This document shows positions 1 to 12,795 of a stretch of DNA of 13,084 bases, piece by piece (within the stretch, counting starts at the first letter, position 1; each line of letters begins with the position of its first letter). The notes under the pieces are model-generated. The model saw only the letters and a list, made by a program, of their open reading frames with translations. It did not search any database and had not been told where the DNA came from. The stretch comes from an uncultured Saprospiraceae bacterium (GTDB lineage: Bacteria > Bacteroidota > Bacteroidia > Chitinophagales > Saprospiraceae). Where the stretch lies: the NCBI GenBank assembly GCA_938041325.1, contig CALIAG010000387.1, positions 1-13,084 of the forward strand, read 5' to 3'. Position numbers and translations under genes: made by a program.

Positions 1-124
1 GAGTGGATATTATGTGAATACAGTTGGGCAATATGCTAACGAAGAAGTAATAAAAAAGAACCTTCAGAACCAAGGGAAGTCAAAATATACCGAGTTGCAC
101 CGAAATCAACTCAAATTATTTTGA
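1..124 (+). CDS. 3' end of an unidentified protein-coding gene (partial, about 40 C-terminal codons, TGA stop at 122-124)
   Basis: Open frame from position 2 to the TGA at 122-124 with no internal stops. Translation is ...SGYYVNTVGQYANEEVIKKNLQNQGKSKYTELHRNQLKLF*. There is no start codon in the window, so it was not listed in the ORF track. A hairpin follows at 127-150. Confidence 0.35.
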   Translation, partial: SGYYVNTVGQYANEEVIKKNLQNQGKSKYTELHRNQLKLF

Positions 125-150: not shown

Positions 151-344
151 GTTCATTGATGATGGTTTATTTAATGTCCTAATAGACCAGGACGATTTAA
201 GAAGAGGGAATTTTAATAATTGTGAATTTGAATAGGCGCAATCATAAAAAAACGAACTGCCAACAAAACGTAAACGTAATGCGGAGTTTTGGGTTAAATC
301 CAAAGGTCTGTGTATATTTATTAAGTCACCAAACCTTATGCCCC

Positions 345-487
345 GACGCTTCGGGGTAGCTTTGGACAAGAAAAAATAAAACGAAACGATAAGCTTTAGC
401 TTTGTGCGCAGACCTGCCTCGCTGGTAGGCAGGCGGAAACGAAAAGTTTCCTTACTTCCGCACTAAGTTTAGCTCGAGCGTTGGGCA
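345..487 (+). repeat. Copy 1 of a ~143-bp structured intergenic repeat family; the core is a 3-stem module: closing helix, CCTGCCT..AGGCAGG hairpin, GGAAAC..GTTTCC hairpin
   Basis: About 85-90 percent identical to 4388-4530 in the same orientation (direct alignment of gacgcttcggggtagctttggacaag...gtgcgcagacctgcct...aggcaggcggaaacgaaaagtttcc...). Hairpins: CCCCGA/TCGGGG at 341-356, CCTGCCT/AGGCAGG at 414-433, GGAAAC/GTTTCC at 435-451, and a closing helix GTGCG(403-407)/CGCAC. It ends 47 nt before the ATG at 534. Confidence 0.75.
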
Positions 488-533
488 TAAGATAAAACCA
501 CAAACAAACTACTGACTAAAAACAATATAAATT

Positions 534-1622
534 ATGTCTAATAGTATCACTGAAATTGCAGTTTTTGGAAATGTCGTTGAATTAAAAGAGCATATTAAAA
601 AGAGTGCTGTTTTTTTACCAAGGGGAATTTTACAAGAAGTAATTTTCTCTGGATGGAATCAAGGGGAAAATGTCGAAATACTAGAGATATTAATTGAAGC
701 AGGTGCTAATATTGATGGTGTAGAAGGAAACTTAAATGCTACCCCATTATACACAGCGGCTATGATAGGTAGTTTTCCTGACAGGTCTTTTGCCGTAACA
801 GACTATTTATTAAAAAAAGGTGCAAATCCCAATATTAAAAACAGTAAAGGAGAAACGGCTCTATTTCAAGCCGTAAATACAATAGCAGACAAAACAGTTA
901 AAAGGTTAATTGAAGGAGGTGCAGATATTAATATTAAAAATAATGATGGTATTCCTTTATTACACAAATGCCTTTTAGCATACAAAGGTTTTTTAGCCGC
1001 TAACCTTGATGAATTGTTTGATGAAAAAACAAAAAAGTACGTGCTTAAAAATCTAGATCATGTATTACAATCGAATCCAGATTTTACATTAAGAAACCCT
1101 CAGAACCGCACTATTATTCAAGAGTGCTTGGTTCATAAAATTTTTTTAGAAAGAAAAATCACTTCAACTATTCTAAAGTCATTAATTGATAATGGCTGTC
1201 CTACCAACGTAAATATTATAATTCCTGAGGAGAATTTAGAATTAAGTCTACTTGCTTATGCTATAGTTACAAATCCAAAACATTCTTTTGAAGTGATAAA
1301 TATTTTAACAGATGAAAACAACATCTTGGAGAATGAATTGGGTACACCAAATATATTTGAGTTAATGTATTATAATCCTAAAGTTGGCATGGAAATATTG
1401 AAGTCAAGACCAACTTTAATTAAGAGCGAATATTTAGAAGGTACATTATTACATTACGCAATCGAATCTGAAAGTATCTCTGTAGAAATTATTGAATTTT
1501 TAATAGAAAAAGGTATCAACCCAAATAAAATAGATAGTTCAGGAAGTACAGTTTTATCATTAGCAATTAAAATGAATGTAGACAAACATATAATTGAACT
1601 ATTAAGTAAACATCAAAAATAG
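534..1622 (+). CDS. Ankyrin-repeat protein (362 aa)
   Basis: ORF with an ATG start. Repeated ankyrin-like units (e.g. LIEAGANIDGVEGNLNATPLYTAAMIGS, LLKKGANPNIKNSKGETALFQAV, LIEGGADINIKNNDGIPLLHKCL, LIEKGINPNKIDSSGSTVLSLAI). No signal peptide. Confidence 0.85.
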   Translation: MSNSITEIAVFGNVVELKEHIKKSAVFLPRGILQEVIFSGWNQGENVEILEILIEAGANIDGVEGNLNATPLYTAAMIGSFPDRSFAVTDYLLKKGANPNIKNSKGETALFQAVNTIADKTVKRLIEGGADINIKNNDGIPLLHKCLLAYKGFLAANLDELFDEKTKKYVLKNLDHVLQSNPDFTLRNPQNRTIIQECLVHKIFLERKITSTILKSLIDNGCPTNVNIIIPEENLELSLLAYAIVTNPKHSFEVINILTDENNILENELGTPNIFELMYYNPKVGMEILKSRPTLIKSEYLEGTLLHYAIESESISVEIIEFLIEKGINPNKIDSSGSTVLSLAIKMNVDKHIIELLSKHQK

Positions 1623-1847
1623 ATTAATAAATCCTATGCCTAACAAACTAAAAAACATAGGGCGTTTGTGCTAAACTCAATGTTCTGAGCATATAAGAAA
1701 AGTCCGCTAAAAATAAAATTGGGCGTTTATAAATGAAAAGATAAAAGCAAAATATTTGTAGTTAGCTAAGTAATAAACCGAAACAAAAGTGCTTATCAAC
1801 TGACCTACGTTTCTTATACTGAACGATAAAGACAATTAGAGAATCCA

Positions 1848-2687
1848 ATGAAAACAATTACATTACCCGACGAATTAAATTTAAGTTCTTCTAAGTCTAT
1901 TGTGGTTTATGATTATAAAAGCATCACTGAAATATCGAAACAACAAATTTTATTAAATAAAAATACGTTTAGCTTTCTTCAAGAAGGAACTAAAGAAGTG
2001 TTTTTCGACAATTCTGCATATGCTATTGATAATTCTCAATTTCTATTAATGAAATCGGGGCATTGTTTAATGACAGAAAAACTCTCTAACGACTCAGAAA
2101 ACTATCGCAGTGTATTGTTTTTCTTTTCTGACGAAGAAATTTTTAGATTTTTACGAAAATTCAAATTAGAAACTTCTAATTCTAAAAAACTGTACTCAAC
2201 ATATTCGTTCAATTATGATTCATTCATCGAAAGATTTGTCGAAAGCCTTTTAGATATTTCAAAACTTTCTAAGCCAATGCAAGAAAACATTTTGAAAACA
2301 AAACTCGAGGAAATAATGCTTTACCTCACAGACTTAAAAGGGTTAGACTTTATTTATTCCTTGATTAACAATAGTGATAATCAAAATCAAAAGTTCATCC
2401 AAACAATTGAAAGCAACAGATTAAATAAACTCACAATAAAAGAGCTTTCATTTTTATCCAATATGAGTGTATCGACTTTCAAGAGAGAATTTGAGAAAAA
2501 ATTTCATAGTTCACCTAGTAAGTGGTTTCAAGATAAAAGACTAGAACATTCAGCTTTTCTGCTAAAAAACGAGTCAAAAAGACCTTCAGATATTTTTGAA
2601 GAAATTGGATATGAAAACTTATCGAATTTTATTCAAGCTTTTAAATCAAAATTCGGAGTCACTCCAAAACAATACCAATCAAGTTGA
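1848..2687 (+). CDS. AraC/XylS-family transcriptional regulator (279 aa)
   Basis: The C-terminal ~100 aa carry the classic AraC-type double HTH (LTIKELSFLSNMSVSTFKREFEKKFHSSPSKWFQDKRLEHSAFLL ... IGYENLSNFIQAFKSKFGVTPKQYQ). The N-terminal domain is a ligand-binding-like region. Confidence 0.85.
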   Translation: MKTITLPDELNLSSSKSIVVYDYKSITEISKQQILLNKNTFSFLQEGTKEVFFDNSAYAIDNSQFLLMKSGHCLMTEKLSNDSENYRSVLFFFSDEEIFRFLRKFKLETSNSKKLYSTYSFNYDSFIERFVESLLDISKLSKPMQENILKTKLEEIMLYLTDLKGLDFIYSLINNSDNQNQKFIQTIESNRLNKLTIKELSFLSNMSVSTFKREFEKKFHSSPSKWFQDKRLEHSAFLLKNESKRPSDIFEEIGYENLSNFIQAFKSKFGVTPKQYQSS

Positions 2688-2781
2688 ACTTTTGTCAATA
2701 CTTTTTGAACTTTTCTGATTAACACAAAACCTGAATTGCTCTCTAGATTTGCATTATAAATTAATAATTAAAACAAATATT

Positions 2782-3339
2782 ATGACAAAATCATTTCAAA
2801 TCTTAACAGTATTAATTGCTTTATCAACCTCAGTTTTCGGACAAAATACATTTACTTTATCAAGTAATGACTTAGGTGGACAAGCTACAATTAACGAAGA
2901 ATTCAACGGCTTTGGATGTACTGGCGAAAATCAATCCCCACAGTTATCTTGGAAAAATGCTCCAGTAGGTACCAAAAGTTTTGCTATAACAATGTACGAC
3001 CCTGATGCGCCTACGGGCAGCGGATGGTGGCACTGGGTTGTATTTGATATCCCAGCAAGCACGAATGAGTTCGTATCTGGAGCTGGAAATACGGAACTAA
3101 ATCTAACACCTGAAGGTGTTATACAAAGTATTACAGATTATGGAGCAAATGGTTATGGTGGACCTTGCCCTCCAGAAGGACACGGTTTACACCAATATAT
3201 AATTACAGTTTACGCTCTTAAAACAGATAAACTTGGATTAAATGAAAGTACAAATCCTGCCGTAGTTGGATATTACCTATGGAATAACACATTGGCTAAG
3301 GCGAGTATTGTGACTTATTATCAAAGAAGCAAGAAATAA
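2782..3339 (+). CDS. Secreted YbhB/YbcL-type PEBP family protein (phosphatidylethanolamine-binding / Raf-kinase-inhibitor-like), about 185 aa from the ATG
   Basis: PEBP signature YDPDAPTGSGWWHWVVFDIP and PCPPEGHGLHQY (the YDPDAP..HW and GxHxY motifs). The ORF-track start at 2749 is a TTG codon. The ATG at 2782 gives a clean signal peptide, MTKSFQILTVLIALSTSVFGQ. The stop is at 3337-3339. Confidence 0.85.
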   Translation: MTKSFQILTVLIALSTSVFGQNTFTLSSNDLGGQATINEEFNGFGCTGENQSPQLSWKNAPVGTKSFAITMYDPDAPTGSGWWHWVVFDIPASTNEFVSGAGNTELNLTPEGVIQSITDYGANGYGGPCPPEGHGLHQYIITVYALKTDKLGLNESTNPAVVGYYLWNNTLAKASIVTYYQRSKK

Positions 3340-3404
3340 AAACTGTCTCTAATAAGGGTAACCGTTGCACAAGCCCCTTAATCGGCAAAATGATGGATTG
3401 ACAC

Positions 3405-3427
3405 AAGCCTCGTAAAGAGGCTTTTTC
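3405..3427 (+). terminator. Rho-independent terminator downstream of the PEBP gene
   Basis: Hairpin aagcctc-gtaaa-gaggctt (7-bp stem) followed by ttttcc, 66 nt after the stop codon. Confidence 0.6.
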
Positions 3428-3656
3428 CTTATTGAATCAGGGTTGGAAGTGAAGATGAAGGCTTCCCTGTTTGATAGATGTCCAAATCGACCACCGACCT
3501 CAAATGCCTGTAAAATTGTTCTTGGGAACCCTGAACAAAAGCTGCTAACATCCAGGATGACAATTAATTTCACAGATTATATCACTAAATAAAGGGAAAA
3601 AATGTTTAGTTTAAAATAATTTATAAGCAATCCCAAAAATTGAAACCATAAGAATA

Positions 3657-4283
3657 ATGAACAATGAAGCGCAACATTCAAATGATATAGGTCTTGATAA
3701 ATTGATTTCAAAAGCTAAAAACAATTCAGCTAAAGACATGTATGACACCAAAAAAGAACCAAGAAAATCAATGGGAGTCTATTTGAAAAATCAAAATAGA
3801 CTCATAATGAATTCAATTGCGATCGCAGATAAAAAAGCAGCAATTTTGATTAGAATAAACACTGCAATAATATCTGCTTTAATTGTATTTGAAAGTTACT
3901 TTGAAAATACATCTTTTAATAATCAAATTATACCAATACTAATTATTGGGCTTTCTATTTCATTGATTTTTGCCATTCTCGCAGCAAAACCTTTCAGCTA
4001 TATTATGTATAAAGTTTTTAATAAAATCATCAAAAAGAAATATCCAAATTTAGAAGAAAATAACTTCATGATTTTTGAAGTACCAGAATTTGAGAAGTAC
4101 GAATTATCAATGCAAAAGGTTTTAAAGAGTCAAAACTTACAAATTGGTAACCTTACTAGATTTAATTATTTTATGAGCAAAAGCATCTCTAGGAATTACT
4201 TACAACTAGAAATTGCTTACACTGTTTTTTTAATTACATTCTTAATAGTTGCTGTTTTCTATATAAGTTCAAACTACTTTTAG
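3657..4283 (+). CDS. Hypothetical membrane protein with three predicted TM helices (208 aa); function unknown
   Basis: ATG start. The hydrophilic N-terminus of about 60 aa is followed by two adjacent hydrophobic helices (AAILIRINTAIISALIVF; IIPILIIGLSISLIFAILAA) and a third at the C-terminus (AYTVFLITFLIVAVFYI). No recognizable catalytic motif. Confidence 0.6.
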   Translation: MNNEAQHSNDIGLDKLISKAKNNSAKDMYDTKKEPRKSMGVYLKNQNRLIMNSIAIADKKAAILIRINTAIISALIVFESYFENTSFNNQIIPILIIGLSISLIFAILAAKPFSYIMYKVFNKIIKKKYPNLEENNFMIFEVPEFEKYELSMQKVLKSQNLQIGNLTRFNYFMSKSISRNYLQLEIAYTVFLITFLIVAVFYISSNYF

Positions 4284-4387
4284 CAAGCAACAAGCGGCAA
4301 AACATTTGTTGTGAACTGTAATTAAGATGGTGGAACCGACCCACCAAAGTCGTTTTATAGGAGAAGGTGTTAAACCACCTAAAGGAC

Positions 4388-4530
4388 ACTTCGGAGTAGC
4401 TTTGGACAAAAAAAGAAAAAACAAAACAATAAGCCTTAGCTTCGTGCGCAGACCTGCCTTGCCGGCAGGCAGGCGGAAACAAAAAAGTTTCCTTGCCTCC
4501 ACACTGCGCTTAGCCGAACTGTTAGGTGAC
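4388..4530 (+). repeat. Copy 2 of the ~143-bp structured repeat family, same orientation as copy 1
   Basis: Aligns with 345-487. The near-perfect palindrome cctgccttgccggcaggcagg at 4453-4473 is followed by GGAAAC-aaaaaa-GTTTCC. The closing helix GCGCAG (4445-4450) / CTGCGC (4507-4512) is shifted by a few nt relative to copy 1. It ends 12 nt before the ATG at 4543. Confidence 0.75.
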
Positions 4531-4542
4531 AAATTAATCAAT

Positions 4543-4920
4543 ATGAAAGTTACTGCCGAAAAAAATGAAAAAGTTGCCAATATGATATTTGCATCCATTT
4601 ATCCACTTTACCTGAATAGATTGGAGAAAAATGAAAGAACAAAAGAAGAACTCGATCAAGTAATTAAATGGTTCACTGGTTTTGATCAAGATGCCTTACA
4701 GGCTCTTATTGATGAAAAAGCAACCTTTAGAACATTTTTTCAAAAAGCTAAAATAAATCCAAACGCACACTTGATCAAAGGAGTCGTTTGTGGTTATCGT
4801 ATTGAAGAAATAGCGGATGAATTTGAATTGTATAAACAATGCAGACGTATGGAAAAGCTGATCGATGAATTGGCAAGAGGTCGTAAAATGGAGAAAATTT
4901 TGCGTGAAGAAAAAAAGTAG
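4543..4920 (+). CDS. DUF2200-family protein (125 aa)
   Basis: The ORF-track frame 4327-4920 is taken from the ATG at 4543. The upstream 72 codons lie over the repeat element and read as low-complexity K/R-rich text. The product MKVTAEKNEKVANMIFASIYPLYLNRLEKNERTKEELDQVIKWFTGFD...GVVCGYRIEEIADE...LIDELARGRKMEKILRE matches my recollection of the conserved DUF2200 family (family assignment is from memory). Confidence 0.65.
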   Translation: MKVTAEKNEKVANMIFASIYPLYLNRLEKNERTKEELDQVIKWFTGFDQDALQALIDEKATFRTFFQKAKINPNAHLIKGVVCGYRIEEIADEFELYKQCRRMEKLIDELARGRKMEKILREEKK

Positions 4921-5054
4921 AAACCGGTGCTAACAAAACCTCAATTGGATTAAAGCACAGTTTAACCGAAACGTTGGCATTCCAACACAACGGGTCCAAA
5001 TCGTATCCTGTGCAATAGAGAAAAATTTTACTGCCTCTGAGTGCAAATCCTTAG

Positions 5055-5081: not shown

Positions 5082-5756
5082 ATGAAAAATACCATTCAAC
5101 TTACTGTAGATGCCGTCGTGTTTGGATACGAGTCGGGAAATATTTCCGTGCTACTAGTGAAACGTAAATACGAACCATATAAAAACGCATGGGCATTGCC
5201 AGGAGGCTTTGTGCTAGAAAATGAAAATCTTGAACAAGCCGTGGAAAGAGAGCTCTCTGAAGAAACCGGTGTAAAGATCAACTATCTCGAACAGTTGTAT
5301 ACGTTTGGTGATGTAGCACGTGATCCTAGGGGCAGGGTCGTATCGATAGCCTATTTTGGGTTGGTTAAACCAAATGCGTTTAAACTGCATGCATCGACCG
5401 ATGCCCAGAAGGCCGAGTGGTTCAATATCGCTCAACTACCAAAACTGGCCTTTGACCATAAAAAGATTGTACAAATTGCCATTGAAAGGCTTCAGGGAAA
5501 GATTACCTATGAACCTATTGGCTTTGAATTACTAGATAAAAGGTTTCCTTTTTCCGATTTAGAGAAATTGTATACAACCTTGTTGGGCAGGGAAATAGAT
5601 CGGCGAAATTTCAAAAAGAAAATTACAAGTCTAAAGGTATTAGACGAATTAGACGAGAAGGTTTCTAAAGGGCGAGGCAGGCCTGGCAGTCTTTTTAGCT
5701 TCAATCAAAAGCGTTATTTCCAACTTAAGAAAGCGGGAATCATCTTCGAAATATAA
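5082..5756 (+). CDS. nrtR: NrtR-like Nudix-related transcriptional regulator (N-terminal Nudix fold plus C-terminal winged helix), 224 aa
   Basis: Nudix box GGFVLENENLEQAVERELSEETGV (the GX5EX7REUXEEXGU pattern). The C-terminal ~80 aa are basic and wHTH-like (KKKITSLKVLDELDEKVSKGRGRPGSLFSF). It is positioned directly upstream of nadV-prs, as in described NrtR regulons (established knowledge). Confidence 0.75.
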   Translation: MKNTIQLTVDAVVFGYESGNISVLLVKRKYEPYKNAWALPGGFVLENENLEQAVERELSEETGVKINYLEQLYTFGDVARDPRGRVVSIAYFGLVKPNAFKLHASTDAQKAEWFNIAQLPKLAFDHKKIVQIAIERLQGKITYEPIGFELLDKRFPFSDLEKLYTTLLGREIDRRNFKKKITSLKVLDELDEKVSKGRGRPGSLFSFNQKRYFQLKKAGIIFEI

Positions 5757-5796
5757 CCCTTTTTAGTCGTGTCAAAATTTAATTTGCGTAAAAAAA

Positions 5797-5855
5797 ACAC
5801 AAAATAGGTTGTGTGTTGAAAAAGCGCATATTATATTTGTGTCATAATTACACAA
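5797..5855 (+). promoter_or_regulatory. Candidate promoter and operators of the NAD-salvage operon: -7 box TAtaTTTG (5832-5839) overlapping inverted repeat TTGTGT-N7-ACACAA (5837-5855); a second everted ACACAA-N8-TTGTGT site lies at 5797-5816
   Basis: Palindromes seen directly. They are placed in the 221-bp gap between the nrtR-like gene and the nadV-like gene. TAnnTTTG is the Bacteroidetes -7 consensus. Confidence 0.45.
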
Positions 5856-5977
5856 ATAAATGATATTTGAAAGAGAGACTAAATGTGGGAATTGAATTTT
5901 AAATATTACGAGATTAATAGCGTTATGTTTCAATATTAGAGGCCCATATTTCCAATAATAAATAAAAATCGAAAATT

Positions 5978-7432
5978 ATGAACGGATTACTACTCACCGA
6001 TGGATATAAGACCGGACACCACCAGCAATACCCAAAAGGAACAGAAGAAGTATATTCTAACTGGACACCTAGAAGTAACAAATACGCACCAAAAGGCTGT
6101 GACAAAGTACTTTCCTTTGGACAACAATATGTGATGCAGTGGTTGCATGATTATTTTGAGGATAATTTCTTTTCAAAACCAAAAGCATCCGTTTGCGATG
6201 AAATAAAAACCGAATTATCATTATACCTTAATGCGGACTATGATGTGACACATTTCGAAGATTTGCATGACCTGGGTTATTTGCCCATTCGAGTGAAGTC
6301 TCTAGACGAAGGGGTCGAGGTTCCCATTCGCGTGCCGATGCTAACGGTAGTAAACACCGATCCTAAATTTTACTGGGTCACCAATTTTCTTGAAACTATA
6401 TTATCGACCATGTTGTGGTTGCCCATGACCTCGGCTTCCATTGCATTGACCTATAAACGTATTTTCAAAAGATGGGCCTTAAAAACAGATGCCGAAAATA
6501 TAGCTTTTATTGATTTTCAAGGGCACGATTTTTCAATGAGGGGCATGGGTGGTCTTCAAAGTGCAGTAGCTTCGGGCATGGGTCATGCGGCCGTATTTTT
6601 AGGATCCGATACGTTGCCGGTGATTCACGGACTTCGAAAGTATTATGAAGCGGAAGGCTTTGTAGTTGGATCTGTGAACGCTACCGAGCACTCCGTAATG
6701 TGTGCTGGCACCAAAGATGATGAAATAGGTACGTTTCGACAGTTGATGAAAACCTACCCCACGGGAATTTTATCTGTAGTGAGTGATACCTGGGATTTAT
6801 GGAAAGTGCTAACGGAGTACCTTCCAACATTAAAAGAAGAAGTATTGGCCCGCGATGGTAAACTGGTGATACGCCCCGATAGCGGTGACCCTGTTGATAT
6901 TATCTGTGGAACAAATACTCAAATGAGTAAGGGCACTCCGGTTGAAAAAGGAGTTGTCGAATTACTTTGGGATGTTTTTGGGGGAACAACGAACAAGGAG
7001 GGCTTTAAAGTATTAGACCCACATATTGGAGCTATTTATGGTGACAGTATCACCACAACACGTGCTGCGGATATTTGTCAACGATTGCATGACAAAGGTT
7101 TTGCCACAACCAATGTGGTATTGGGTATTGGTTCGTTTACCTATCAATTTAATACCAGGGATACCTTCGGGTTTGCTATGAAAGCTACTTCGGTAGTAGT
7201 TGACGGCGCGCGCAGGGAAATTTTCAAAGACCCTATTACAGATGACGGCGTAAAAAAATCTGCAAAAGGATTAATTCGGGTCGATAAAGTAGATGGCGAT
7301 TATGTGTTGGTTGATGAAGTAACGGAAGCAGAAGAACAAAATGGGGAATTAAAGGTGATTTTCGAAGACGGCAAGTTCGTACATAAAACCGCTATAGAAG
7401 AAATTAGGGCTCGAATAAACGAACGGGTTTAG
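5978..7432 (+). CDS. nadV: Nicotinamide phosphoribosyltransferase family protein (NadV/Nampt; possibly the Namat-type NAD-reconstitution enzyme), 484 aa
   Basis: The N-terminus LLLTDGYKTGHHQQYP and the overall length are typical of NadV/NAMPT. It is followed by a prs homolog as in nadV-prs operons. Confidence 0.9.
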   Translation: MNGLLLTDGYKTGHHQQYPKGTEEVYSNWTPRSNKYAPKGCDKVLSFGQQYVMQWLHDYFEDNFFSKPKASVCDEIKTELSLYLNADYDVTHFEDLHDLGYLPIRVKSLDEGVEVPIRVPMLTVVNTDPKFYWVTNFLETILSTMLWLPMTSASIALTYKRIFKRWALKTDAENIAFIDFQGHDFSMRGMGGLQSAVASGMGHAAVFLGSDTLPVIHGLRKYYEAEGFVVGSVNATEHSVMCAGTKDDEIGTFRQLMKTYPTGILSVVSDTWDLWKVLTEYLPTLKEEVLARDGKLVIRPDSGDPVDIICGTNTQMSKGTPVEKGVVELLWDVFGGTTNKEGFKVLDPHIGAIYGDSITTTRAADICQRLHDKGFATTNVVLGIGSFTYQFNTRDTFGFAMKATSVVVDGARREIFKDPITDDGVKKSAKGLIRVDKVDGDYVLVDEVTEAEEQNGELKVIFEDGKFVHKTAIEEIRARINERV

Positions 7433-7454
7433 TGTAGCATTTAAAATTTTCAAT

Positions 7455-8213
7455 ATGAAATACGAAATAAAAAAATTTAGGGACGGACAGGTAGCTGCAA
7501 AAATTTTGGAAGAAGGCGATCTTGAAGTCCGCATTCGCGGGAATAGTTATGAAGACCTGTTTGCCATCGCAGCTATAAAGGACGCCTGGGATGCTGAGCA
7601 TAGTATGAACAAGACGGCTACGGCACGTTTAACGATATATTGCCTTATAGGGCAGCGATCCGATAGGCGTTTTAATGCAAAAGAATCTTTTGACTTAAAA
7701 GTGATAGCAAACTTCATTAATTCGATGGGTTTTGATAAGGTAGAAATTCTACATCCGCATAGTCCCATCTCCTTGGCTTTGATAGAAAACTCTAGTAAGT
7801 TATCCCATTTTCAATACGTTCAAAAAACCTTTGAAGCTATTGGAAACCCTGTTTTGGTAAGTCCGGATGCCGGGGCTTACAAAACCACCCATGAAATCGC
7901 TGAAAAGTTGGGAGCTGATTTGGTCCCCTCAAATAAAGTTAGGGTCGATGGCGCACCACAAATAAGTATTCAGGGAGATGTAAAGGATAAAGATTGTTTG
8001 ATTGTTGATGACTTGGCAGATGGGGGTCGAACCTTCAAGTTTTTGGCAGCAGCCTTAAAAGAACAAGGCGCGACAAGGGTGTATTTGTATGTGACGCATG
8101 CCCAATTCAATTATGGTTTTGATGAGTTGAAAGAGACCATTGACCATGTGTATTGCACCAATAGTTACAAGGATATTGATGATGAATTTGTGACGCAATA
8201 TAAAATTGTATAA
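7455..8213 (+). CDS. prs: Short ribose-phosphate pyrophosphokinase (Prs) homolog (possibly Adps-like), 252 aa
   Basis: Aligns to Prs along its length: FRDGQVAAKILEEGDLEV vs Prs FSDGEVSVQINENVRG; VLVSPDAGAYKTTHEIAEKLG vs [20 protein letters not shown]; the PRPP-binding loop DCLIVDDLADGGRTFKFLAAALKEQGATRVYLYVTHAQF vs [39 protein letters not shown]. It lacks about 25 N-terminal residues relative to canonical Prs. Confidence 0.85.
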   Translation: MKYEIKKFRDGQVAAKILEEGDLEVRIRGNSYEDLFAIAAIKDAWDAEHSMNKTATARLTIYCLIGQRSDRRFNAKESFDLKVIANFINSMGFDKVEILHPHSPISLALIENSSKLSHFQYVQKTFEAIGNPVLVSPDAGAYKTTHEIAEKLGADLVPSNKVRVDGAPQISIQGDVKDKDCLIVDDLADGGRTFKFLAAALKEQGATRVYLYVTHAQFNYGFDELKETIDHVYCTNSYKDIDDEFVTQYKIV

Positions 8214-8334
8214 AGTTAGTAAGGTGCCAGAAGAACTTGTTGTGAGTGATGGGGATGGTGTAAGTTTCCGGATACGACGTATCACAAGTTCAAAGTTTGG
8301 AAGAATTGATTGCCGATCTTAAAAAGAAAATGAG

Positions 8335-8889
8335 ATGAAATATTCACTGGAATTGGTCAAACAACAATTTGATTCGAATGAAAATATGAAATTCTTGTTC
8401 TTCTGGGGACATACCCCTGCCAAGGACGGTTCGGTGACCAAAAGCTGTTTCAGTCAATGGTGGAAAGCATCTTTTAGTAAAGAAGGTGAAACCTACAAAA
8501 CTGCAGAACATTTTATGATGGCCGAAAAGGCGCGTTTGTTTCAAGCTTTGGAAATAAGAGATGAAATTATAGCCTGTGAACATCCCGCAGCAGCTAAAAA
8601 ATTAGGGCGCAAGGTGAAAGGTTTTGATGCTGATATTTGGGACGAACATAAGTACGCCATCGTAAAAGAAGCAAATATGCTAAAGTTTTCGCAGCATGAC
8701 GCTTTAAAAGACTTTTTAGTAAACACAGGAAGTAGAATTCTGGTCGAGGCCAGTCCGGTAGATAACATCTGGGGGATTGGTTTGGCGCAAGACGACCCAA
8801 AGGCCCAAAACCCTCATCTATGGCAAGGTGAAAACTTACTTGGTTTTGCGTTGATGGAAGTTCGTGATCAATTAATTAAGAATCTATGA
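8335..8889 (+). CDS. NADAR-domain protein (YbiA/DUF1768 family, NAD and ADP-ribose related), 184 aa
   Basis: Family hallmarks: FLFFWGH..SQW, AEHFMMAEKARLF, LGRKVKGFD..W, ILVEASPVDNIWGIGL. The stop overlaps the next start (ATGA at 8886-8889). Confidence 0.85.
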   Translation: MKYSLELVKQQFDSNENMKFLFFWGHTPAKDGSVTKSCFSQWWKASFSKEGETYKTAEHFMMAEKARLFQALEIRDEIIACEHPAAAKKLGRKVKGFDADIWDEHKYAIVKEANMLKFSQHDALKDFLVNTGSRILVEASPVDNIWGIGLAQDDPKAQNPHLWQGENLLGFALMEVRDQLIKNL

Positions 8890-9422
8890 AAAAATATGCG
8901 GCGCTCTTCGGAGGTTCTGGAAACGATACGAATTCCAAAGAGTATCTTGAAACAGTTGAAATAGGTTCTTTTTTGACCAAACAAGGTTATATAGTAAAGA
9001 ACGGTGGATATGGCGGCATGATGGAAGCAGTTTCAAAAGGAACGACCGAATCCGGTGGCAGCGCAATTGGAGTTACATGCAAACAAGTGGGTCCTGCCGA
9101 GGGAAACCAGTATTTATCAGAGACGATAGTTACTGAGAAATTGTATGACAGACTCAAATTGTTGATCGAAAACACTACGGTTTTTATTGTACAGCGAGGT
9201 GGCATTGGAACACTTTCCGAGGTTTTTTTGGCTTTGGATATTATTCGGAAAGAGCCCAAATTATGGCAGCCTAAATTATATTTTGTGGGATACATTTGGA
9301 ATGATGTAGTGGCTTCTTTGAAAGCAACTTTAATTCCGGAGTACGAGCATGATTTATTTCAAATCGTAAAAGATTCCGAAGAACTATATCAACGAATATG
9401 TATAGATTTTCCTAAAAACTAA
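8886..9422 (+). CDS. LOG-family (TIGR00730, lonely-guy-type) Rossmann-fold nucleotide N-glycosidase-like protein, 178 aa
   Basis: Motifs GGYGGMMEA (GGGxGxMxA) and RGGIGTLSE (PGGxGTxxE) characteristic of LOG/SLOG proteins. Translationally coupled to the NADAR gene. Confidence 0.85.
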   Translation: MKKYAALFGGSGNDTNSKEYLETVEIGSFLTKQGYIVKNGGYGGMMEAVSKGTTESGGSAIGVTCKQVGPAEGNQYLSETIVTEKLYDRLKLLIENTTVFIVQRGGIGTLSEVFLALDIIRKEPKLWQPKLYFVGYIWNDVVASLKATLIPEYEHDLFQIVKDSEELYQRICIDFPKN

Positions 9423-9457: not shown

Positions 9458-10558
9458 CTATTTATTGACGGAGAAAATCTCCTTCAATTGTTTTACCATA
9501 CCCCCGTTTCCAGAGACGGTAATCTCGCCGATTTTCTCGGCGATCTTCTCCACGTATTCCATTTCCTTCAGTTTGAAGAGCATTTCGTTGTCTTCCATCA
9601 GTTTTGCGGTGTTCAGCAAGCTTCTGGTAGACGCCGTTTCTTCACGTCGGGTAATGATATTCGCTTGGGCTCTCTTCTGAGCCACCAAAACTTGGTTCAT
9701 GATATCCTTCATTTCACCGGTTAGGATCACGTCACGAATACCGCAACTCAAAACTGCAACACCCAATTGGGTGGCCGCTGTCTTGATATCACCGAACACA
9801 GCTTCCGCGATGCTTTCTTTTCGCTCTAGAAGTTCATCTAGCGTATAGGTGCCGATATACGCACGCAATACCAACTGCATTGCAATGTACAACTGCTTCT
9901 CGTAGTCTTTGCTACCCAGCAAAGCCTTTTCGATATCGATAACCTTATACTGCGTATAGAAGTTGATACGAATGGCGGCCTTGTCTTTGGTCAGCAGTTC
10001 TTGACCAGAAATCTCCAATTGCAATTGACGCATATCCGCCTTGGCAATTTTGATAGGGATGTCATTTTTCCAGAAATGGTAGGTACCACTTTCCAGCGTT
10101 TTGACATAAACATCATCGACCAAAAGGACTGCTTTTTCATATGCCGCAACTTCCAAAACACGAACGTAAGTACGCAATTGTGCATGGCTCAACATCGCTT
10201 TGCCAATAGCCTCGGTGATATAGATCTTACTCAAATCGGCCATCACGAACTTGTAGTTCATCAAACCTTTCCAGAAGGCGTATTTACCGGCTGTAAGTAC
10301 TTGCTTCAAGTTTCCGTTTTCGGAAACCAAAGCCAGTTCAGCATCTTTTACTTCGATGATATGCAACATAGCATCCAAGCCTTGGTCCTGTAGCAAGATT
10401 TCTAATGCTATAGGAGCAACAAAGGCTTTGGTAAGGTCATAAACCTTAACCATATTTCTAAAGCCTACCCAATGCGTACCTTGGGTAATCACTTTTTGGT
10501 AGTCGCCTCTTTTAAAGACCAAACCTACTTTTCCTGCATTGATTCTTACTCTTTTCAT
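9458..10558 (-). CDS. SPFH/band-7 (stomatin/prohibitin/flotillin-like) domain protein, 366 aa
   Basis: SPFH-like core (LTKDKAAIRINFYTQYKVID, LRAYIGTYTLDELL) followed by the A/E/R-rich coiled segment typical of the family (QKRAQANIITRREETASTRS). Convergent with the NAD-salvage operon. Confidence 0.8.
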   Translation of the reverse strand: MKRVRINAGKVGLVFKRGDYQKVITQGTHWVGFRNMVKVYDLTKAFVAPIALEILLQDQGLDAMLHIIEVKDAELALVSENGNLKQVLTAGKYAFWKGLMNYKFVMADLSKIYITEAIGKAMLSHAQLRTYVRVLEVAAYEKAVLLVDDVYVKTLESGTYHFWKNDIPIKIAKADMRQLQLEISGQELLTKDKAAIRINFYTQYKVIDIEKALLGSKDYEKQLYIAMQLVLRAYIGTYTLDELLERKESIAEAVFGDIKTAATQLGVAVLSCGIRDVILTGEMKDIMNQVLVAQKRAQANIITRREETASTRSLLNTAKLMEDNEMLFKLKEMEYVEKIAEKIGEITVSGNGGMVKQLKEIFSVNK

Positions 10559-10905: not shown

Positions 10906-10936
10906 GGAGATCAGTTTTAAAAGATGATCGGCTTTA

Positions 10937-10981
10937 GGCTACATTATGAGTGTAGTGCTCTACCAACTGAGCTAAAGGGCC
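10937..10981 (-). pseudogene. Orphan 5' fragment of a tRNA with anticodon CAT (Met/Ile2-type): acceptor, D-arm and anticodon arm only
   Basis: Minus strand reads GGCCCTT-TA-GCTC-AGTTGGTA-GAGC-A-CTACA-CTCATAA-TGTAG-CC, then continues TAAAGCCGATCATC with no T-arm. Confidence 0.7.
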
Positions 10982-10989
10982 TAAAAAAG

Positions 10990-11055
10990 TGGCCTCTTGC
11001 AGGAGTCGAACCTGCGCGTCCTTCTGTTGTTCTAACCTAACTGAACTACAATCCC
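10990..11055 (-). pseudogene. Chimeric/degenerate tRNA remnant: 5' acceptor and D-arm of one tRNA (GGGATTG...) joined to a T-arm/acceptor of another; the anticodon arm is missing
   Basis: Minus strand: GGGATTG-TA-GTTC-AGTTAGGTTA-GAAC-A, then ACAGAAGGACGC, then GCAGG-TTCGACT-CCTGC-AAGAGGCC-A. The 3' acceptor strand cannot pair with the 5' strand. Confidence 0.55.
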
Positions 11056-11061
11056 ATTTGG

Positions 11062-11087
11062 GACTGATGGGATTCGAACCCATGACT
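11062..11087 (-). pseudogene. Orphan tRNA 3' fragment (T-arm plus acceptor: ATGGG-TTCGAAT-CCCAT-CAGTCCC-A); possible att-site remnant
   Basis: A canonical T-loop GTTCGAATC with the 3' acceptor strand but no upstream cloverleaf. Its acceptor (CAGTCCC) would pair with the GGGATTG 5' fragment that follows 3 nt later, suggesting tandem copies that are each partly deleted. Confidence 0.55.
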
Positions 11088-11089
11088 CA

Positions 11090-11400
11090 CAGAGTGGTGA
11101 TTGTTTTTTGGAAAACAATCGAAACCATCAAGTCAAGTTGTACATGAAGACAGTATACCTCTCGGCAAAACTCCATACAATAGTGCCCTACAGAAACACC
11201 CAACAAGACCCGCTTGATATCTTTATTCCCGCAAAGGCGGGAATCTCTATTTTAATGAACTTTTGTAAAAGCCTCACAACACTCCTTGTTGTTATGAGGC
11301 ACTACCACAAACTATGTTTTCACAAGCTTGTTTTTAATTACATGACAAAACTGAAACAGTACTACGCAATTATTATGCGTAGTTAAAATTTCTTTTGTTT
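11090..11400. other. About 310-bp noncoding, hairpin-rich segment of unknown function between tRNA-Arg and the tRNA fragments
   Basis: Hairpins: gattgtttt-ccaa-aaaacaatc (11090-11112, 9-bp stem); ttcccgc-aaag-gcgggaa (11226-11243); cctcacaaca..tgttgttatgagg (11271-11300, bulged); actacgca-attattat-gcgtagt (11361-11383, 8-bp stem followed by tttcttttgttttt on the plus strand). The only ORF (11108-11386, plus strand) has no RBS and atypical composition. Confidence 0.4.
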
Positions 11401-11404
11401 TTAG

Positions 11405-11477
11405 TAGGAGTAGCAAGACTCGAACTCGCATTTCTAGGTTCGTAGCCCAGCGTTCTATCCAATTGAACTATACTCCT
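11405..11477 (-). tRNA. tRNA-Arg (anticodon ACG), 73 nt, canonical
   Basis: Minus strand AGGAGTA-TA-GTTC-AATTGGATA-GAAC-G-CTGGG-CTACGAA-CCTAG-AAAT-GCGAG-TTCGAGT-CTTGC-TACTCCT-A. All four stems pair. Confidence 0.9.
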
Positions 11478-11478
11478 A

Positions 11479-11555
11479 TGGTGGAACAGACAGGACTCGA
11501 ACCTGTATCGTCGAATCTTCAATCCGCCGCATTGACCATCTTTGCTACTGTTCCC
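11479..11555 (-). tRNA. tRNA-Phe (anticodon GAA)-like with an encoded CCA and an extra 5' G; the D and anticodon stems each carry one mismatch
   Basis: Minus strand (G)GGAACAG-TA-GCAA-AGATGGTCA-ATGC-G-GCGGA-TTGAAGA-TTCGA-CGAT-ACAGG-TTCGAGT-CCTGT-CTGTTCC-A-CCA. Only 1 nt separates it from tRNA-Arg. Confidence 0.7.
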
Positions 11556-11558
11556 TCT

Positions 11559-11634
11559 TGGGGTGTACTCCGGGACTTGAACCCTGTTCCTCCCATTCAC
11601 AGCGGGGCGCTTTACCAGATAAGCTAGAGACACC
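11559..11634 (-). tRNA. tRNA-His (anticodon GTG)-like with G-1:C73 and an encoded CCA, but mismatches in the lower acceptor stem and the T-stem (possibly degenerate)
   Basis: Minus strand G(-1)-GTGTCTC-TA-GCTT-ATCTGGTA-AAGC-G-CCCCG-CTGTGAA-TGGGA-GGAA-CAGGG-TTCAAGT-CCCGG-AGTACAC-C-CCA. Mismatches at C5/T68, C7/A66 and A50/G64. The D-arm is perfect and G-1:C73 is the established His identity element. Confidence 0.6.
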
Positions 11635-11646
11635 ATTTTAGAGATT

Positions 11647-11795
11647 TTTTTGAAAGGTGTCGATTATTTTTCTACGTCCCTTTTTGCGCCCCACGTTGTT
11701 AAAATTTTCTAGCGTAGCTATGGCTATGCTGGAAAATTTTGCCTAGTTGCGCACCAAAAGTGAACTGTACAAATTCTAATCACACCTTTCAAAAC
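11647..11795. mobile_element. MITE-like ~150-bp element bounded by ~19-bp terminal inverted repeats (ttttgaaaggtgtcgatt ... aatcacacctttcaaaa), inserted between tRNA-His and tRNA-Gln
   Basis: Left arm 11647-11666 and right arm 11776-11795 are reverse complements (18/19 with a 1-nt indel). The interior is AT-rich with no ORF. It is the only large spacer in an otherwise tightly packed array. Confidence 0.45.
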
Positions 11796-11803
11796 AGTCT
11801 CTG

Positions 11804-11875
11804 TAAACCCGAAAGGATTTGAACCTTTACAACAAGAATCAAAATCTTGTATGCTAACCGTTACATCACGGGTCT
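11804..11875 (-). tRNA. tRNA-Gln (anticodon TTG), 72 nt
   Basis: Minus strand AGACCCG-TG-ATGT-AACGGTTA-GCAT-A-CAAGA-TTTTGAT-TCTTG-TTGT-AAAGG-TTCAAAT-CCTTT-CGGGTTT-A. Confidence 0.85.
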
Positions 11876-11900
11876 ATTTGCAAGCCTAACAAGATTTGAA

Positions 11901-11920
11901 CCTGCCTGCCGGCAGGCAGG
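11901..11920. repeat. Perfect 20-bp palindrome CCTGCCTGCC/GGCAGGCAGG, the same hairpin as in repeat copies 1 and 2, sitting inside a 130-bp non-tRNA spacer (11881-12010)
   Basis: acctgcctgccggcaggcagg is near-identical to 4452-4473 and related to 413-433. The neighbouring hairpin ttattt-c-aaataa is at 11965-11977. Confidence 0.6.
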
Positions 11921-12031
11921 CTCATATCTCAGGGTTAGAAATGCTTTTCTGCATTCACGAACTCCTTATTTCAAATAAAATGAGCATGAGCTAAATCCTG
12001 CGTGCTATCCATTACACCATAAGCTTAATTG

Positions 12032-12148
12032 TACCCCACCCAAGATTCGAACTTGGACTTGAAGGATTTTAAGTCCAGAACTTCGTTCGGTGCCTTCGCA
12101 GAAACTGTGTTTCTGCTCGTCAATCTCTGCCAGTTGGGCTAGTGGGGC
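12032..12148 (-). ncRNA. 117-nt tRNA-like element: perfect tRNA 5' and 3' ends (7-bp acceptor, canonical T-arm) enclosing about 45 extra nt that form three hairpins; possibly an interrupted tRNA or a novel tRNA-like RNA
   Basis: Minus strand GCCCCAC-TA-GCCCAACTGGCAGAGATTGACGA-[GCAGAAAC-aca-GTTTCTGC]-GAAGGCA-[CCGAAC-gaa-GTTCtGG]-ACTTAAAATCCTTCAAGT-CCAAG-TTCGAAT-CTTGG-GTGGGGT-A. The acceptor is GCCCCAC/GTGGGGT. The segment CTGGA-CTTAAAA-TCCTT resembles a weak anticodon arm (TAA). Confidence 0.5.
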
Positions 12149-12153
12149 ATTTG

Positions 12154-12226
12154 TACAGGGAGAGAGATTCAAACTCTCAGAGTACTGGTTCTAAGCCAGC
12201 TGCGTTTGCCATTTCGCCATCCCTGC
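12154..12226 (-). tRNA. Noncanonical tRNA with Leu anticodon TAG but a class-I (short variable arm) structure and A73
   Basis: Minus strand GCAGGGA-TG-GCG-AAATGGCAAA-CGC-A-GCTGG-CTTAGAA-CCAGT-ACTCT-GAGAG-TTTGAAT-CTCTC-TCCCTGT-A. All stems pair. The variable region is 5 nt, whereas bacterial tRNA-Leu normally has a long variable arm. Confidence 0.65.
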
Positions 12227-12230
12227 ATTG

Positions 12231-12303
12231 CTGAGGCATTAGGATTCGAACCTAAAACTTCCGTGTTAACAGCACGGTACTCTACCTATTGAGTTATACC
12301 TCA
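12231..12303 (-). tRNA. tRNA-Asn (anticodon GTT), 73 nt, canonical
   Basis: Minus strand TGAGGTA-TA-ACTC-AATAGGTA-GAGT-A-CCGTG-CTGTTAA-CACGG-AAGTT-TTAGG-TTCGAAT-CCTAA-TGCCTCA-G. Confidence 0.9.
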
Positions 12304-12308
12304 CTTTG

Positions 12309-12380
12309 TACTCTGTAGGGGAATCGAACCCCTATTTCCTGATAGAAAGTCAGGCGTACTAACCGTTATACGAACAGAGC
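12309..12380 (-). tRNA. tRNA-Glu (anticodon TTC), 72 nt
   Basis: Minus strand GCTCTGT-TC-GTAT-AACGGTTA-GTAC-G-CCTGA-CTTTCTA-TCAGG-AAAT-AGGGG-TTCGATT-CCCCT-ACAGAGT-A. Confidence 0.9.
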
Positions 12381-12384
12381 AAAT

Positions 12385-12539: not shown

Positions 12540-12544
12540 TTTTG

Positions 12545-12617: not shown

Positions 12618-12620
12618 TTG

Positions 12621-12703: not shown

Positions 12704-12711
12704 ATAATTTT

Positions 12712-12787: not shown

Positions 12788-12795
12788 CATTTTTG

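Follow-up and report, generated by a model that had tools for sequence, protein, structure and literature searches.

Two direct repeats that lie just ahead of unrelated genes in contig CALIAG010000387.1 (assembly GCA_938041325.1) raise the question of what kind of element they represent. The stretch analysed here, hereafter the window, comprises 13,084 nt. An initial annotation had described the repeats as structured sequences of ~143 bp with a three-stem core, and had considered as their function a cis-regulator in the 5' untranslated region (UTR), a small RNA, or a mobile sequence of the repetitive extragenic palindrome (REP) or miniature inverted-repeat transposable element (MITE) type. Based on our data, the repeats are very probably attC-like recombination sites, and the window carries an integron-like cassette array from a Maribacter-related marine flavobacterium. 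We observed the repeat family itself, the architecture of its arrays, their GTT boundaries, covarying helices, attI junctions, and both the adjacency and the domain make-up of a tyrosine recombinase.

The two repeats are readily recovered. They share 101 ungapped nt at 87% identity (345-445 and 4385-4485), blastn aligns them across 130 nt at 84.6% identity, and the pairwise alignment places the limits of the common segment at ~347-487 and ~4385-4528. Both stop near an ATG, copy A 47 nt before the ankyrin-repeat open reading frame (ORF) at 534 and copy B 12-20 nt before the DUF2200 ORF at 4543. Each, however, is only the 3' two-thirds of an element of ~200-230 bp instead of a complete unit of ~143 bp, and the window holds more than two such elements. 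Besides the full-length versions of copies A and B (hereafter E_A and E_B), an additional diverged full copy is found at 1635-1827 (E_mid) and a miniature one at 4925-4982. The four sites lie within 4.7 kb, all on the plus strand.

The repeat family and its cassettes

Relatives of the repeats were sought in public sequence data. A genome scan for the two-hairpin core, whose pattern contained a rare palindrome insertion, recovered three loci, in Maribacter huludaoensis (L002), Maribacter sp. Asnod1-A12 (L003) and one metagenome-assembled genome (MAG). The M. huludaoensis locus shows five co-oriented, mutually diverged copies between consecutive ORFs, and a profile built from these copies then detected the diverged window copy at 1631-1751. 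A metagenome pattern (TAGCTTTRGACA...GGAAAC...GTTTCC) yielded at least 120 marine contigs from TARA and other marine assemblies, and the family counts given below come from these pattern-ascertained contigs plus the Maribacter loci. In total, nhmmer gave at least 293 matches, at least 272 of them at 30 bits or more, across 124 marine contigs and the Maribacter genomes. The repeats are thus not a pair of copies without relatives but members of a family of at least 272 elements. A scan of viral contigs with the core pattern gave no matches, and a search of a phage collection returned a match to tRNA-Tyr only.

The copies are organized in arrays with up to seven of them per contig. In all 77 contigs holding two or more copies, every copy lies on the same strand, and none is mixed. 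The median gap between elements is 702 nt, and in 133 of 139 gaps the largest ORF lies on the element strand. Packing is tight, the median spacing being 25 nt between the G of GTT and the ATG, and 12 nt between the stop codon and AAC. The genes in the gaps are unrelated to one another, as had been stated for the two genes of the window: 150 cassette proteins matched 61 different Pfam families, nearly all of them once, and many had no match. Imm49, the MazF/PemK toxin, SMODS, CAP12/Pycsar TIR, a C5 DNA methylase, a beta-lactamase-fold protein and NUDIX are among the matches. Array cassettes are therefore compact, co-oriented and functionally heterogeneous, as those of integrons are. The arrays may store genes for anti-phage and inter-bacterial conflict (SMODS, CAP12/Pycsar TIR, a restriction-modification (R-M) system, Imm49, MazF), a role that has been reported for the chromosomal integrons of Vibrio.

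The limits of the unit became apparent when the ends of neighbouring elements were compared. For 76 pairs of adjacent elements less than 1300 nt apart, we set the 4 nt after GTT of one element against the 4 nt before AAC of the next, and found exact reverse complements in 72. Within a single element, complementarity to its own 5' end did not differ from chance (on average 1.63 of 4 positions, vs 1.49 for random pairs). Counted from the G, perfect complementarity extends over exactly 10 nt in 54 of the 76 pairs. Because each terminal 10-mer has its partner on the far side of the adjacent gene, the cassette is the unit. Pairing with the next element would be expected if the unit, [TT+7 ... ORF ... 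element ... G], had once been a circle, closed by a 10-bp R box and inserted through a crossover within GTT. The complementarity of each 10-mer to the next element is characteristic of gene cassettes that enter as circles at G/TT, the junction expected of attC sites, and junctions with the attI-like site described below are alike.

These boundaries bear directly on the possibility that the repeats are a MITE resembling REP, ERIC or Correia sequences, which would spread between genes and may modulate transcription or mRNA stability of the flanking ones. In common with REP/BIME, ERIC and Correia elements, which can sit in 5' UTRs, the repeats are short, structured, multi-copy and intergenic, and they have complementary ends; moreover, an IS200/IS605 tnpA gene adjoins copy A, and a contig of the Logan collection breaks inside the element at window position 438, as is typical of assemblers at repeats. 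A MITE would not, however, be expected to show an orientation strictly uniform within arrays and equal to that of the ORFs, nor to alternate regularly with single, tightly packed ORFs. The termini of one element are not complementary beyond 4 nt, and the two strands of an R box lie on either side of the neighbouring ORF; no duplication of a target site was observed, the elements do not qualify as MITEs, and array heads carry a dedicated attI-like site and a recombinase. We consider this the least probable of the explanations weighed here. A related candidate, in which the element would be the right end or REP partner of the IS200/IS605 tnpA, or an omega-RNA-like sequence, was rejected, as more than 120 contigs carry members of the family but no tnpA.

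Folding of the sites

Consensus and covariation were derived from 222 unique full copies. The consensus reads tgaCAAC-AAAAC-CTAAACGTAATGCGGAC at the 5' end and, after the interior, CTCCGCACTACGCTTAG-CCGAAC-CGTTGtca at the 3' end. The 5' boundary is YAAC, with AAC in 213/222 copies preceded by C (128) or T (88), and the 3' boundary is GTTR, with GTT in 212/222 followed by G (118) or A (100). The outer positions of the 3' terminal 10-mer (R') are free: position 5 is a purine in 41% of the copies, position 6 a purine in 52% and position 7 a pyrimidine in 45%. From the 5' terminal 10-mer (R'') to R', the median length is 196 nt, and 230-245 nt for the window sites. Next to the termini comes an unpaired spacer, AAAAC on one side and CCGAACC on the other.

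Inward of the spacer, a helix forms between a 5' block, CTAAACGTAATGCGGA, and a 3' block, TCCGCACTACGCTTAG, ~150 nt apart. Pairing in this L helix is 91% Watson-Crick, and compensatory double changes occur in 5% or more of the sequences at 8 of its 14 pairs; one pair, for example, is CG in 132 copies, AT in 41 and GC in 23, and another is GC in 140, AT in 28 and CG in 27. When the partner column was slid by 1-3 positions as a control, pairing was 17-30% and at most one pair had compensatory changes. Two positions of the helix, 5 bp apart, are A.C in 219/222 copies, which makes them G.T on the complementary strand, and one transition would turn either of them Watson-Crick; other G.T pairs in the helix do not exceed 2%. 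No bulged (extrahelical) bases were found in the L helix of the 222 copies, the unpaired spacer being present, and the two A.C mismatches might be functionally equal to extrahelical bases. RNAalifold with DNA parameters recovered the 16-bp L helix as the sole consensus structure on either strand. A hairpin of the interior (GCTAAATC/GATTTAGC) also covaries, one of its pairs being TA in 146 copies, CG in 38, AT in 16 and GC in 12.

The family is thus a multi-copy structured one with selection on pairing, as had been proposed, but the pairing under selection is not the one that the initial annotation had pointed to. Covariation is strong in the 16-bp L helix and missing from the proposed closing helix GTGCG/CGCAC, which was said to be kept through register shifts: it is only 70% Watson-Crick, with zero compensatory changes, and its 3' strand covaries with the 5' block ~150 nt upstream, not with GTGCG. 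Folds of single sequences do reproduce the closing helix and both hairpins of the three-stem core (z = -2.3 to -2.8), but as a conserved structure this core does not hold across the family. Its first hairpin (CCTGCCT...AGGCAGG) is a separate palindrome insertion, present in 10/222 copies and missing from the consensus. The second (GGAAAC/GTTTCC) is conserved in sequence but does not covary, and it is also part of the search pattern.

The two strands differ in stability. Taken as they stand in the arrays, 175/222 copies fold more stably on the bottom strand. When the sites were rebuilt as circular junctions and folded as DNA, the bottom strand was the stabler one in 68/76 (mean -36.2 vs -33.4 kcal/mol), and the terminal R box was closed in 54-56/76 of the minimum free energy (MFE) folds. 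The conservation of structure and not of sequence, together with the cassette-specific R boxes, suggests that the substrate would be single-stranded, and both the G.T versus A.C asymmetry and the difference in energy suggest the bottom strand as the active one. The mismatches may serve strand choice or recognition, in place of extrahelical bases. Covariation restricted to Watson-Crick pairs and A.C mismatches on the coding strand favour folded DNA over a sense-strand RNA.

The same features weigh on the idea of a structured RNA, be it a sense 5' UTR cis-regulator, a small RNA, or an antisense RNA in which the A.C positions would be G.U. Such an RNA would account for the position of the elements directly upstream of ORFs and for single-sequence folds stabler than shuffled ones (z as above), and many copies show, as TAGCTTTG, a box of the type TAnnTTTG, which is the consensus of the -7 promoter box of Bacteroidetes. 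The downstream genes are unrelated, however, and Rfam has no match. The covarying helix is nearly pure Watson-Crick (at most 2% G.T) with two mismatches disruptive on the sense strand, TAnnTTTG occurs in 38/102 copies not selected by the search pattern, and no RNA model accounts for a 10-bp R box that pairs only after circularisation of the cassette. An RNA function is accordingly very improbable, if slightly less so than a MITE. A Bacteroidetes promoter in the element was rejected as well, TAGCTTTG being partly an ascertainment artefact (38/102 unselected copies) and accompanied by no consistent -33 box. As a secondary role, the site may contain a promoter for the cassette that follows it.

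The absence from Rfam had been anticipated. In a cmscan of the whole window at E<=1, with covariance models that included Flavo-1, no family matched the elements. The sole overlap was with group-II-D1D4-2 at 4329-4434, on the decayed 5' part of E_B, at 28.6 bits against a cut-off of 36; we took this weak, sub-threshold match to domains D1-D4 of group II introns as chance. None of the three functions suggested for the repeats suits the evidence, given that the copies are co-oriented with ORFs (77/77 contigs, 133/139 ORFs) and that arrays are headed by an attI-like site and a tyrosine recombinase, to which we now turn.

The recombinase and the insertion site at the array heads

All ORFs of the fetched loci were searched with IntI1, the reference sequence of which agreed at 100% identity with annotated intI1 genes. 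This search found four tyrosine recombinases of 375-380 aa (L094, L060, L078 and L019), each directly upstream of an array and on the same strand. About 50 nt past the recombinase stop codon these loci have a common sequence, ...ATATAGTAACTTGTTACTATATACAATTGTT, and the similarity between loci ends exactly at GTT (ACAATTGTT). In three of the four loci (L094, L060 and L019) this GTT and the next 7 nt are the perfect reverse complement of R'' of the first element; in L078 an intervening site was probably missed. As the junction 10-mer pairs with the R'' of the first element, we regard it as an attI-like insertion site. It adjoins the recombinase gene and takes cassettes, as attI does, but its geometry is unlike that of the classical divergent intI/attI.

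The attI motif occurs in 17 loci. The contigs of L043 and L016 begin within the 3' end of the recombinase, and in that of L048 the gene is reduced to the final ~45 nt of coding sequence. Two isolates, Pricia antarctica (L125) and Croceitalea sp. MTPC9 (L126), have the recombinase and attI followed by co-oriented accessory genes among the elements, including an R-M system, DUF3800, DUF6090 and insertion sequence (IS) elements. Homologues of the recombinase with 77-100% identity are found in Maribacter, Arenibacter, Pricia, Cellulophaga, Croceitalea, Eudoraea and Psychroserpens, and are named 'site-specific tyrosine recombinase/integron integrase' at NCBI. Immediately upstream of the recombinase in Pricia and Croceitalea, and divergent from it, a gene at 9562-9936 (minus strand in both loci) encodes a conserved 124-aa protein with an N-terminal zinc-ribbon/treble-clef motif and a weak match to DUF2116. 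This protein is not homologous to the 125-aa gene beside the attI of M. huludaoensis, and it could be a component of the platform or a regulator. Upstream of the M. huludaoensis array itself (7000-7900, minus strand) there are GGTTGTTGGTTGTT tandem repeats and other short repeats, one of which carries CCTGCCTGCC in a motif of the type 'tcatcctgag...gtcgaaggg'.

By Pfam, the recombinase is made up of Phage_int_SAM_4 and Phage_integrase (PF00589). Residues 1-105 form a conserved extension before the SAM-like core-binding domain that is not in IntI1 or Xer (e.g. L060 3044-4186, minus strand), and Pfam gave no match for these first ~105 aa. Against IntI1 the catalytic motifs can be read (the R in GLRRSE, HxLRH, LLGH and the Y in EIYTHV), while the ~40-aa segment specific to IntI, the domain near patch III by which integron integrases are recognised, is missing from the array recombinases. 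Profile scores were 232-239 bits for NF040815 (XerA-type/'integron integrase'; cut-off 220), 208-215 bits in two stretches for TIGR02249 (integron integrase; cut-off 265) and ~200 bits for the NCBIfam model of XerD (cut-off 330). Against solved structures, archaeal XerA (4a8e) scored 154 bits, IntI4 (2a3v) 136 bits split in two, and E. coli XerD 120 bits.

Integrons are the textbook system of gene capture and shuffling, defined by the extra domain of IntI and by attC hairpins with extrahelical bases. The arrays described here are like sedentary chromosomal integrons (IntI, attI and attC arrays, e.g., the Vibrio cholerae superintegron with its VCR repeats) in that a recombinase-attI platform is followed by a long, co-oriented and diverse array, whose repeats are array-specific and highly identical to one another. 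The YAAC...GTTR bounds with the junction in GTT are also alike, as are the succession of R box, unpaired spacer, L box and variable terminal structure, the covariation, the better folding of the bottom strand, and the occurrence of some arrays without integrase, resembling clusters of attC sites lacking integrases (CALINs). They are unlike chromosomal integrons in six respects: the hosts are Flavobacteriaceae, in which surveys for integrons had reported essentially none; the recombinase is devoid of the IntI insertion and bears an unrelated N-terminal extension of ~105 aa; the R box measures 10 bp and is free in its outer sequence, at variance with RYYYAAC/GTTRRRY; two invariant A.C/G.T mismatches take the place of extrahelical bases; the sites are ~200-230 nt long, outside the 57-141 bp of attC; and attI lies downstream of the recombinase gene, which points into the array. 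A recombinase pointing toward the array is also found in the 'inverted' integrons of Treponema and Chlorobi.

The resemblance to Xer proteins is of another kind. The recombinase scores best against XerA, with XerD about level with IntI, and has the core-binding and catalytic build of Xer (XerC/XerD, XerA) without the IntI insertion, but differs by its added N-terminal region. Xer dif sites and the pdif sites of Acinetobacter plasmids are double-stranded sites of ~28 bp, which alternate in orientation in pdif modules. The sites described here, in contrast, are structured elements of ~200 nt that all point the same way; their long-range helices covary, and each cassette has its own R box. The system has integron logic, yet fails the defining IntI test and differs in its site features.

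This combination invites a further explanation, in which the repeats are canonical attC sites served in trans by a true IntI encoded elsewhere, and the adjacent Xer-like recombinase is a bystander, e.g., a chromosome-dimer resolvase next to a recombination hotspot. The YAAC/GTTR cores, the GTT crossover triplet, the layout of R box, loop and L box and the cassette logic are all held in common with such sites; the recombinase is missing upstream of some arrays and is highly conserved across genera. Nevertheless, the recombinase is found immediately 5' of the attI-like junction wherever the upstream sequence suffices and the gene is undeleted, in three genera. The outer R-box positions depart from RYYYAAC/GTTRRRY, two invariant mismatches stand instead of extrahelical bulges, and the sites are ~200 nt long against 57-141 nt in typical attC. 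CALIN arrays without a nearby intI are common (PMC4889954), but IntegronFinder surveys report essentially no complete integrons in Bacteroidetes besides that of Salinibacter: the IntegronFinder 2.0 survey lists a single one, in Salinibacter ruber M1, only In0 elements having been known earlier (PMC9024848). The IntI-specific segment is the feature by which IntegronFinder defines IntI (PMC4889954), and it has been described as essential for integron function (PMC8138268). Service in trans thus appears improbable, though less so than the RNA and MITE explanations. Neither cassette arrays nor integron-like systems of Flavobacteriaceae were described in the full-text literature searched, although a description may exist beyond it.

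Returning to attC-like sites of an integron-like array, the adjacent recombinase is presumably the catalyst, and we infer that the system is currently active. A cassette would consist of TT plus 7 nt, one or a few tightly packed ORFs, and a structured site of ~200 nt ending in G. Joining of the ends in the excised circle would create the 10-bp R box (NNNNNNYAAC/GTTRNNNNNN), so that the joined site would present an asymmetric internal loop of ~5 x 7 nt, then the 16-bp L box with its two invariant mismatches, and a variable interior. The 375-aa, co-oriented and chromosomally encoded recombinase would recombine such sites with each other and with the attI-like site (...TATATACAATTG/TT) ~50 nt downstream of its own stop codon. 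It would probably act on the folded bottom strand, as integron integrases do, with strand exchange within GTT, at attI or at another site. Circle excision, folding of single-stranded sites and exchange within GTT are established for integrons.

Several points weigh against this interpretation. All of the evidence comes from sequence, the mechanistic steps are drawn by analogy, and the present locus is tied to the system by site homology only, as the window has neither a recombinase nor attI. The sites of the window are also partly decayed: the R' triplet of E_mid is GAT, the 5' arm of E_B is degenerate, and R' of E_B agrees with the next R'' over GTTAG only. Attention should also be paid to the attI-like sites that have no recombinase gene upstream, namely those of M. 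huludaoensis (L002, ~6500, minus strand), L045 and L110; they suggest either repeated losses of the recombinase leading to CALIN-like states, or arrays serviced in trans. The identity of 77-88% between recombinases of different genera fits a vertically inherited platform, but it also fits a housekeeping neighbour of Xer type. As the set was ascertained by TAGCTTTRGACA and GGAAAC..GTTTCC, the conservation of those two blocks is inflated. Finally, only 2/107 cassette bodies recur between contigs and no cassette was found with differing neighbours, so that recent shuffling is not directly shown. At L045, ychF stands upstream of the attI-like site in the place of a recombinase.

In a wider sense, the arrays might represent a second lineage of cassette capture, vertically maintained in many genera of marine Flavobacteriaceae, with a Xer-like recombinase devoid of the IntI domain but bearing a new N-terminal module, long folded single-stranded sites, and both strand choice and recognition encoded by two invariant mismatches instead of extrahelical bases. 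We hold this extended claim to be evenly balanced between right and wrong. If true, integron-type capture would have had more than one origin or would be older than the IntI insertion, and the arrays would form a very large oceanic store of genes for accessory functions, immunity and defence. In any case, a whole clade of abundant marine Flavobacteriaceae (among them Maribacter, Arenibacter, Pricia, Croceitalea and Cellulophaga) carries arrays with the cassette logic of integrons, a recombinase devoid of the defining domain, and sites with another set of unpaired features. Experimental confirmation would broaden the definition of integron-like systems, serve as a natural experiment in the recognition of folded DNA by tyrosine recombinases, and account for a hypervariable region in the genomes of ocean bacteria of ecological importance. 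A large reservoir of cassettes would also come to light, one that present-day tools probably overlook, since these require the intI_Cterm profile and limit the length of attC to 200 nt; YAAC/GTTR ends plus the complementarity of the R box to the next site would be a handle for mining it.

Sites, genes and palindromes of the window

The window reads, from left to right, tnpA, E_A, the ankyrin gene, E_mid, the AraC, PEBP and PycTM-like genes, E_B, DUF2200, the miniature site and the NAD-salvage genes. Neither a recombinase nor attI was found in its 13 kb; the array continues past the left end, and a recombinase further upstream is possible. The window therefore shows a distal part of the array. 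With four sites in 4.7 kb and no recombinase in 13 kb it would be a candidate CALIN (at least two attC less than 4 kb apart and no integrase nearby), its left end being open.

At the left end, upstream of E_A and either within the array or beside it, the 3' end of an IS200/IS605-family tnpA occupies 2..124 (plus strand; tblastn to annotated plasmid tnpA genes, 52% identity, E=1e-4), a 40-aa fragment that Pfam did not identify. A hairpin, CCCCGACGG..TCGGG, follows its stop codon at 127-148. A similar hairpin, CCCCGACGCTTCGGGG (341-357), interrupts the loop of E_A's interior hairpin and has no counterpart in the family consensus; it may be transposon-end-like or REP-like, and related to the adjacent tnpA.

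E_A is a full attC-like site at 255..489 (plus strand; nhmmer 219 bits), aligned to the Maribacter loci and the family consensus. Homology of copy A to the Maribacter loci begins at ~255, that is, ~90 nt 5' of the start first assigned to it. Its R'' 10-mer lies at 255-264 (AAC 262-264) and the AAAAC spacer at 265-269, followed by the 5' strand of the L helix (L''), GTAAACGTAATGCGGA (270-285), an interior (286-456) with two lineage-specific hairpin insertions (341-357 and 413-433), the 3' strand (L'), TCCGCACTAAGTTTAG (457-472), and R', GTTGGGCATA (480-489), with the crossover triplet GTT at 480-482. The bottom-strand DNA MFE fold pairs both ends as well as L'' with L'. A search with the ankyrin protein recovered, apart from the ~13-kb source contig, only a 1.4-kb contig of Logan ERR9287623 (L004). 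In this independent short-read assembly the contig with the ankyrin gene starts inside E_A at window position 438, and the break is consistent with E_A being multi-copy in that genome.

The ankyrin-repeat gene cassette extends over 481..1826 (plus strand), with its ORF at 534-1622 and its own recombination site, E_mid, included. The two ends of the cassette, GTTGGGCATA and the reverse complement of TATGCCTAAC (1635-1644), agree at 9/10 positions. E_mid is a diverged full-length site at 1635..1834 (plus strand), of which the consensus alignment spans 1635-1827 and the partial nhmmer match 1631-1751. It consists of R'' TATGCCTAAC (1635-1644), L'' CTAAAAAACATAGGGC (1648-1663) and L' GACCTACGTTTCTTAT (1802-1817). 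Compared with E_A, its L helix shows many compensatory differences, with both A.C mismatches retained in place. Its R' triplet is mutated to GAT (1825-1827), and the site is therefore probably inactive.

Between E_mid and E_B lie genes for AraC, PEBP and a PycTM-like membrane protein; the last (3657-4283), just upstream of E_B, has a weak match to Pycsar effectors (PycTM). E_B itself occupies ~4284..4530 (plus strand; nhmmer 180 bits over 4290-4539, and alignments), with L' TCCACACTGCGCTTAG at 4498-4513 and R' GTTAGGTGAC at 4521-4530 (GTT 4521-4523). Its 3' two-thirds (4385-4530) are well conserved, and its 5' third, with R'' and L'', has decayed through substitutions and indels. Excision of the 4-kb block between copies A and B, which the initial annotation had foreseen through recombination of direct repeats, is reasonable, now as an attC x attC recombination that would free a composite cassette.

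The DUF2200 cassette ORF (4543-4920) stands between E_B and the miniature site at 4925..4982 (plus strand). The latter reads GCTAAC (AAC 4932-4934), AAAAC, a short interior, CCGAAA and CGTTGGCA (GTT 4973-4975). In its 58 nt, aligned to the consensus, the family ends (R''/spacer and spacer/R') are kept and the long interior is gone. A comparable short site of 69 nt is found in M. huludaoensis (L002, 1607-1539), and the miniature is presumably a functional site. Directly after it, the last cassette site, comes an apparent NAD-salvage cluster (5082-9422) with an NrtR-type Nudix regulator, ORFs of the size of nicotinamide phosphoribosyltransferase and PRPP synthetase, NADAR and a SLOG/LOG-like protein; its 484-aa and 252-aa ORFs were assigned by eye.

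Three features suggest partial fossilisation, namely the GAT triplet of E_mid, the decay of the 5' arm in E_B and the poor agreement of the R box around DUF2200, and the window array may be a partly decayed one, possibly a fossil. When the whole window was scanned for complementary GTT+7 and 7+AAC, 40 matches were obtained vs ~31 expected, too noisy for further cassettes to be called; the ankyrin pair coincides exactly with the annotated site ends.

The palindrome first noted as hairpin 1 has a distribution of its own. It is inserted as CCTGCCTcgctggtAGGCAGG at 413..433 inside E_A and as CCTGCCTTGCCGGCAGGCAGG at 4453..4473 inside E_B, and in both it separates GCGCAGA from CGGAAAC. A free-standing, perfect copy of 20 nt, CCTGCCTGCCGGCAGGCAGG, is indeed present at 11901..11920, where none is expected by chance; it lies within the tRNA array, apart from any cassette site, with which it has the palindrome alone in common. 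Inside sites, two insertion points were seen, GCGCAGA|CGGAAAC and one that splits GTGTATA|TTTAT. Other copies lie in L012 (670, 774 and 1904), L093 (2140, 3959 and 4076), L117 (1876 and 2558), L112 (3768) and L001 (4773 and 7511), and the palindrome also occurs outside arrays, in the tRNA array of the window and in an unrelated MAG. Neither a target duplication nor a consistent target sequence was seen at its insertions. In distribution, CCTGCCTGCCGGCAGGCAGG behaves as an independent insertion.

The tRNA array is dense (10929-12882, minus strand). ARAGORN identified 11 tRNAs (Arg, Phe, His, Gln, Leu, Asn, Glu, Asp, Tyr, Cys and Ser), to which Rfam adds two weak matches (12470-12537 and 10929-10981). 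Sub-threshold YrlA and tmRNA-like matches fall at 11021-11129. Uncalled tRNA-like fragments with T-arm-like GGTTCGAATCC repeats are found at ~11000, 11066, 11890 and 12041, and the palindrome at 11901-11920 abuts a T-arm-like sequence.

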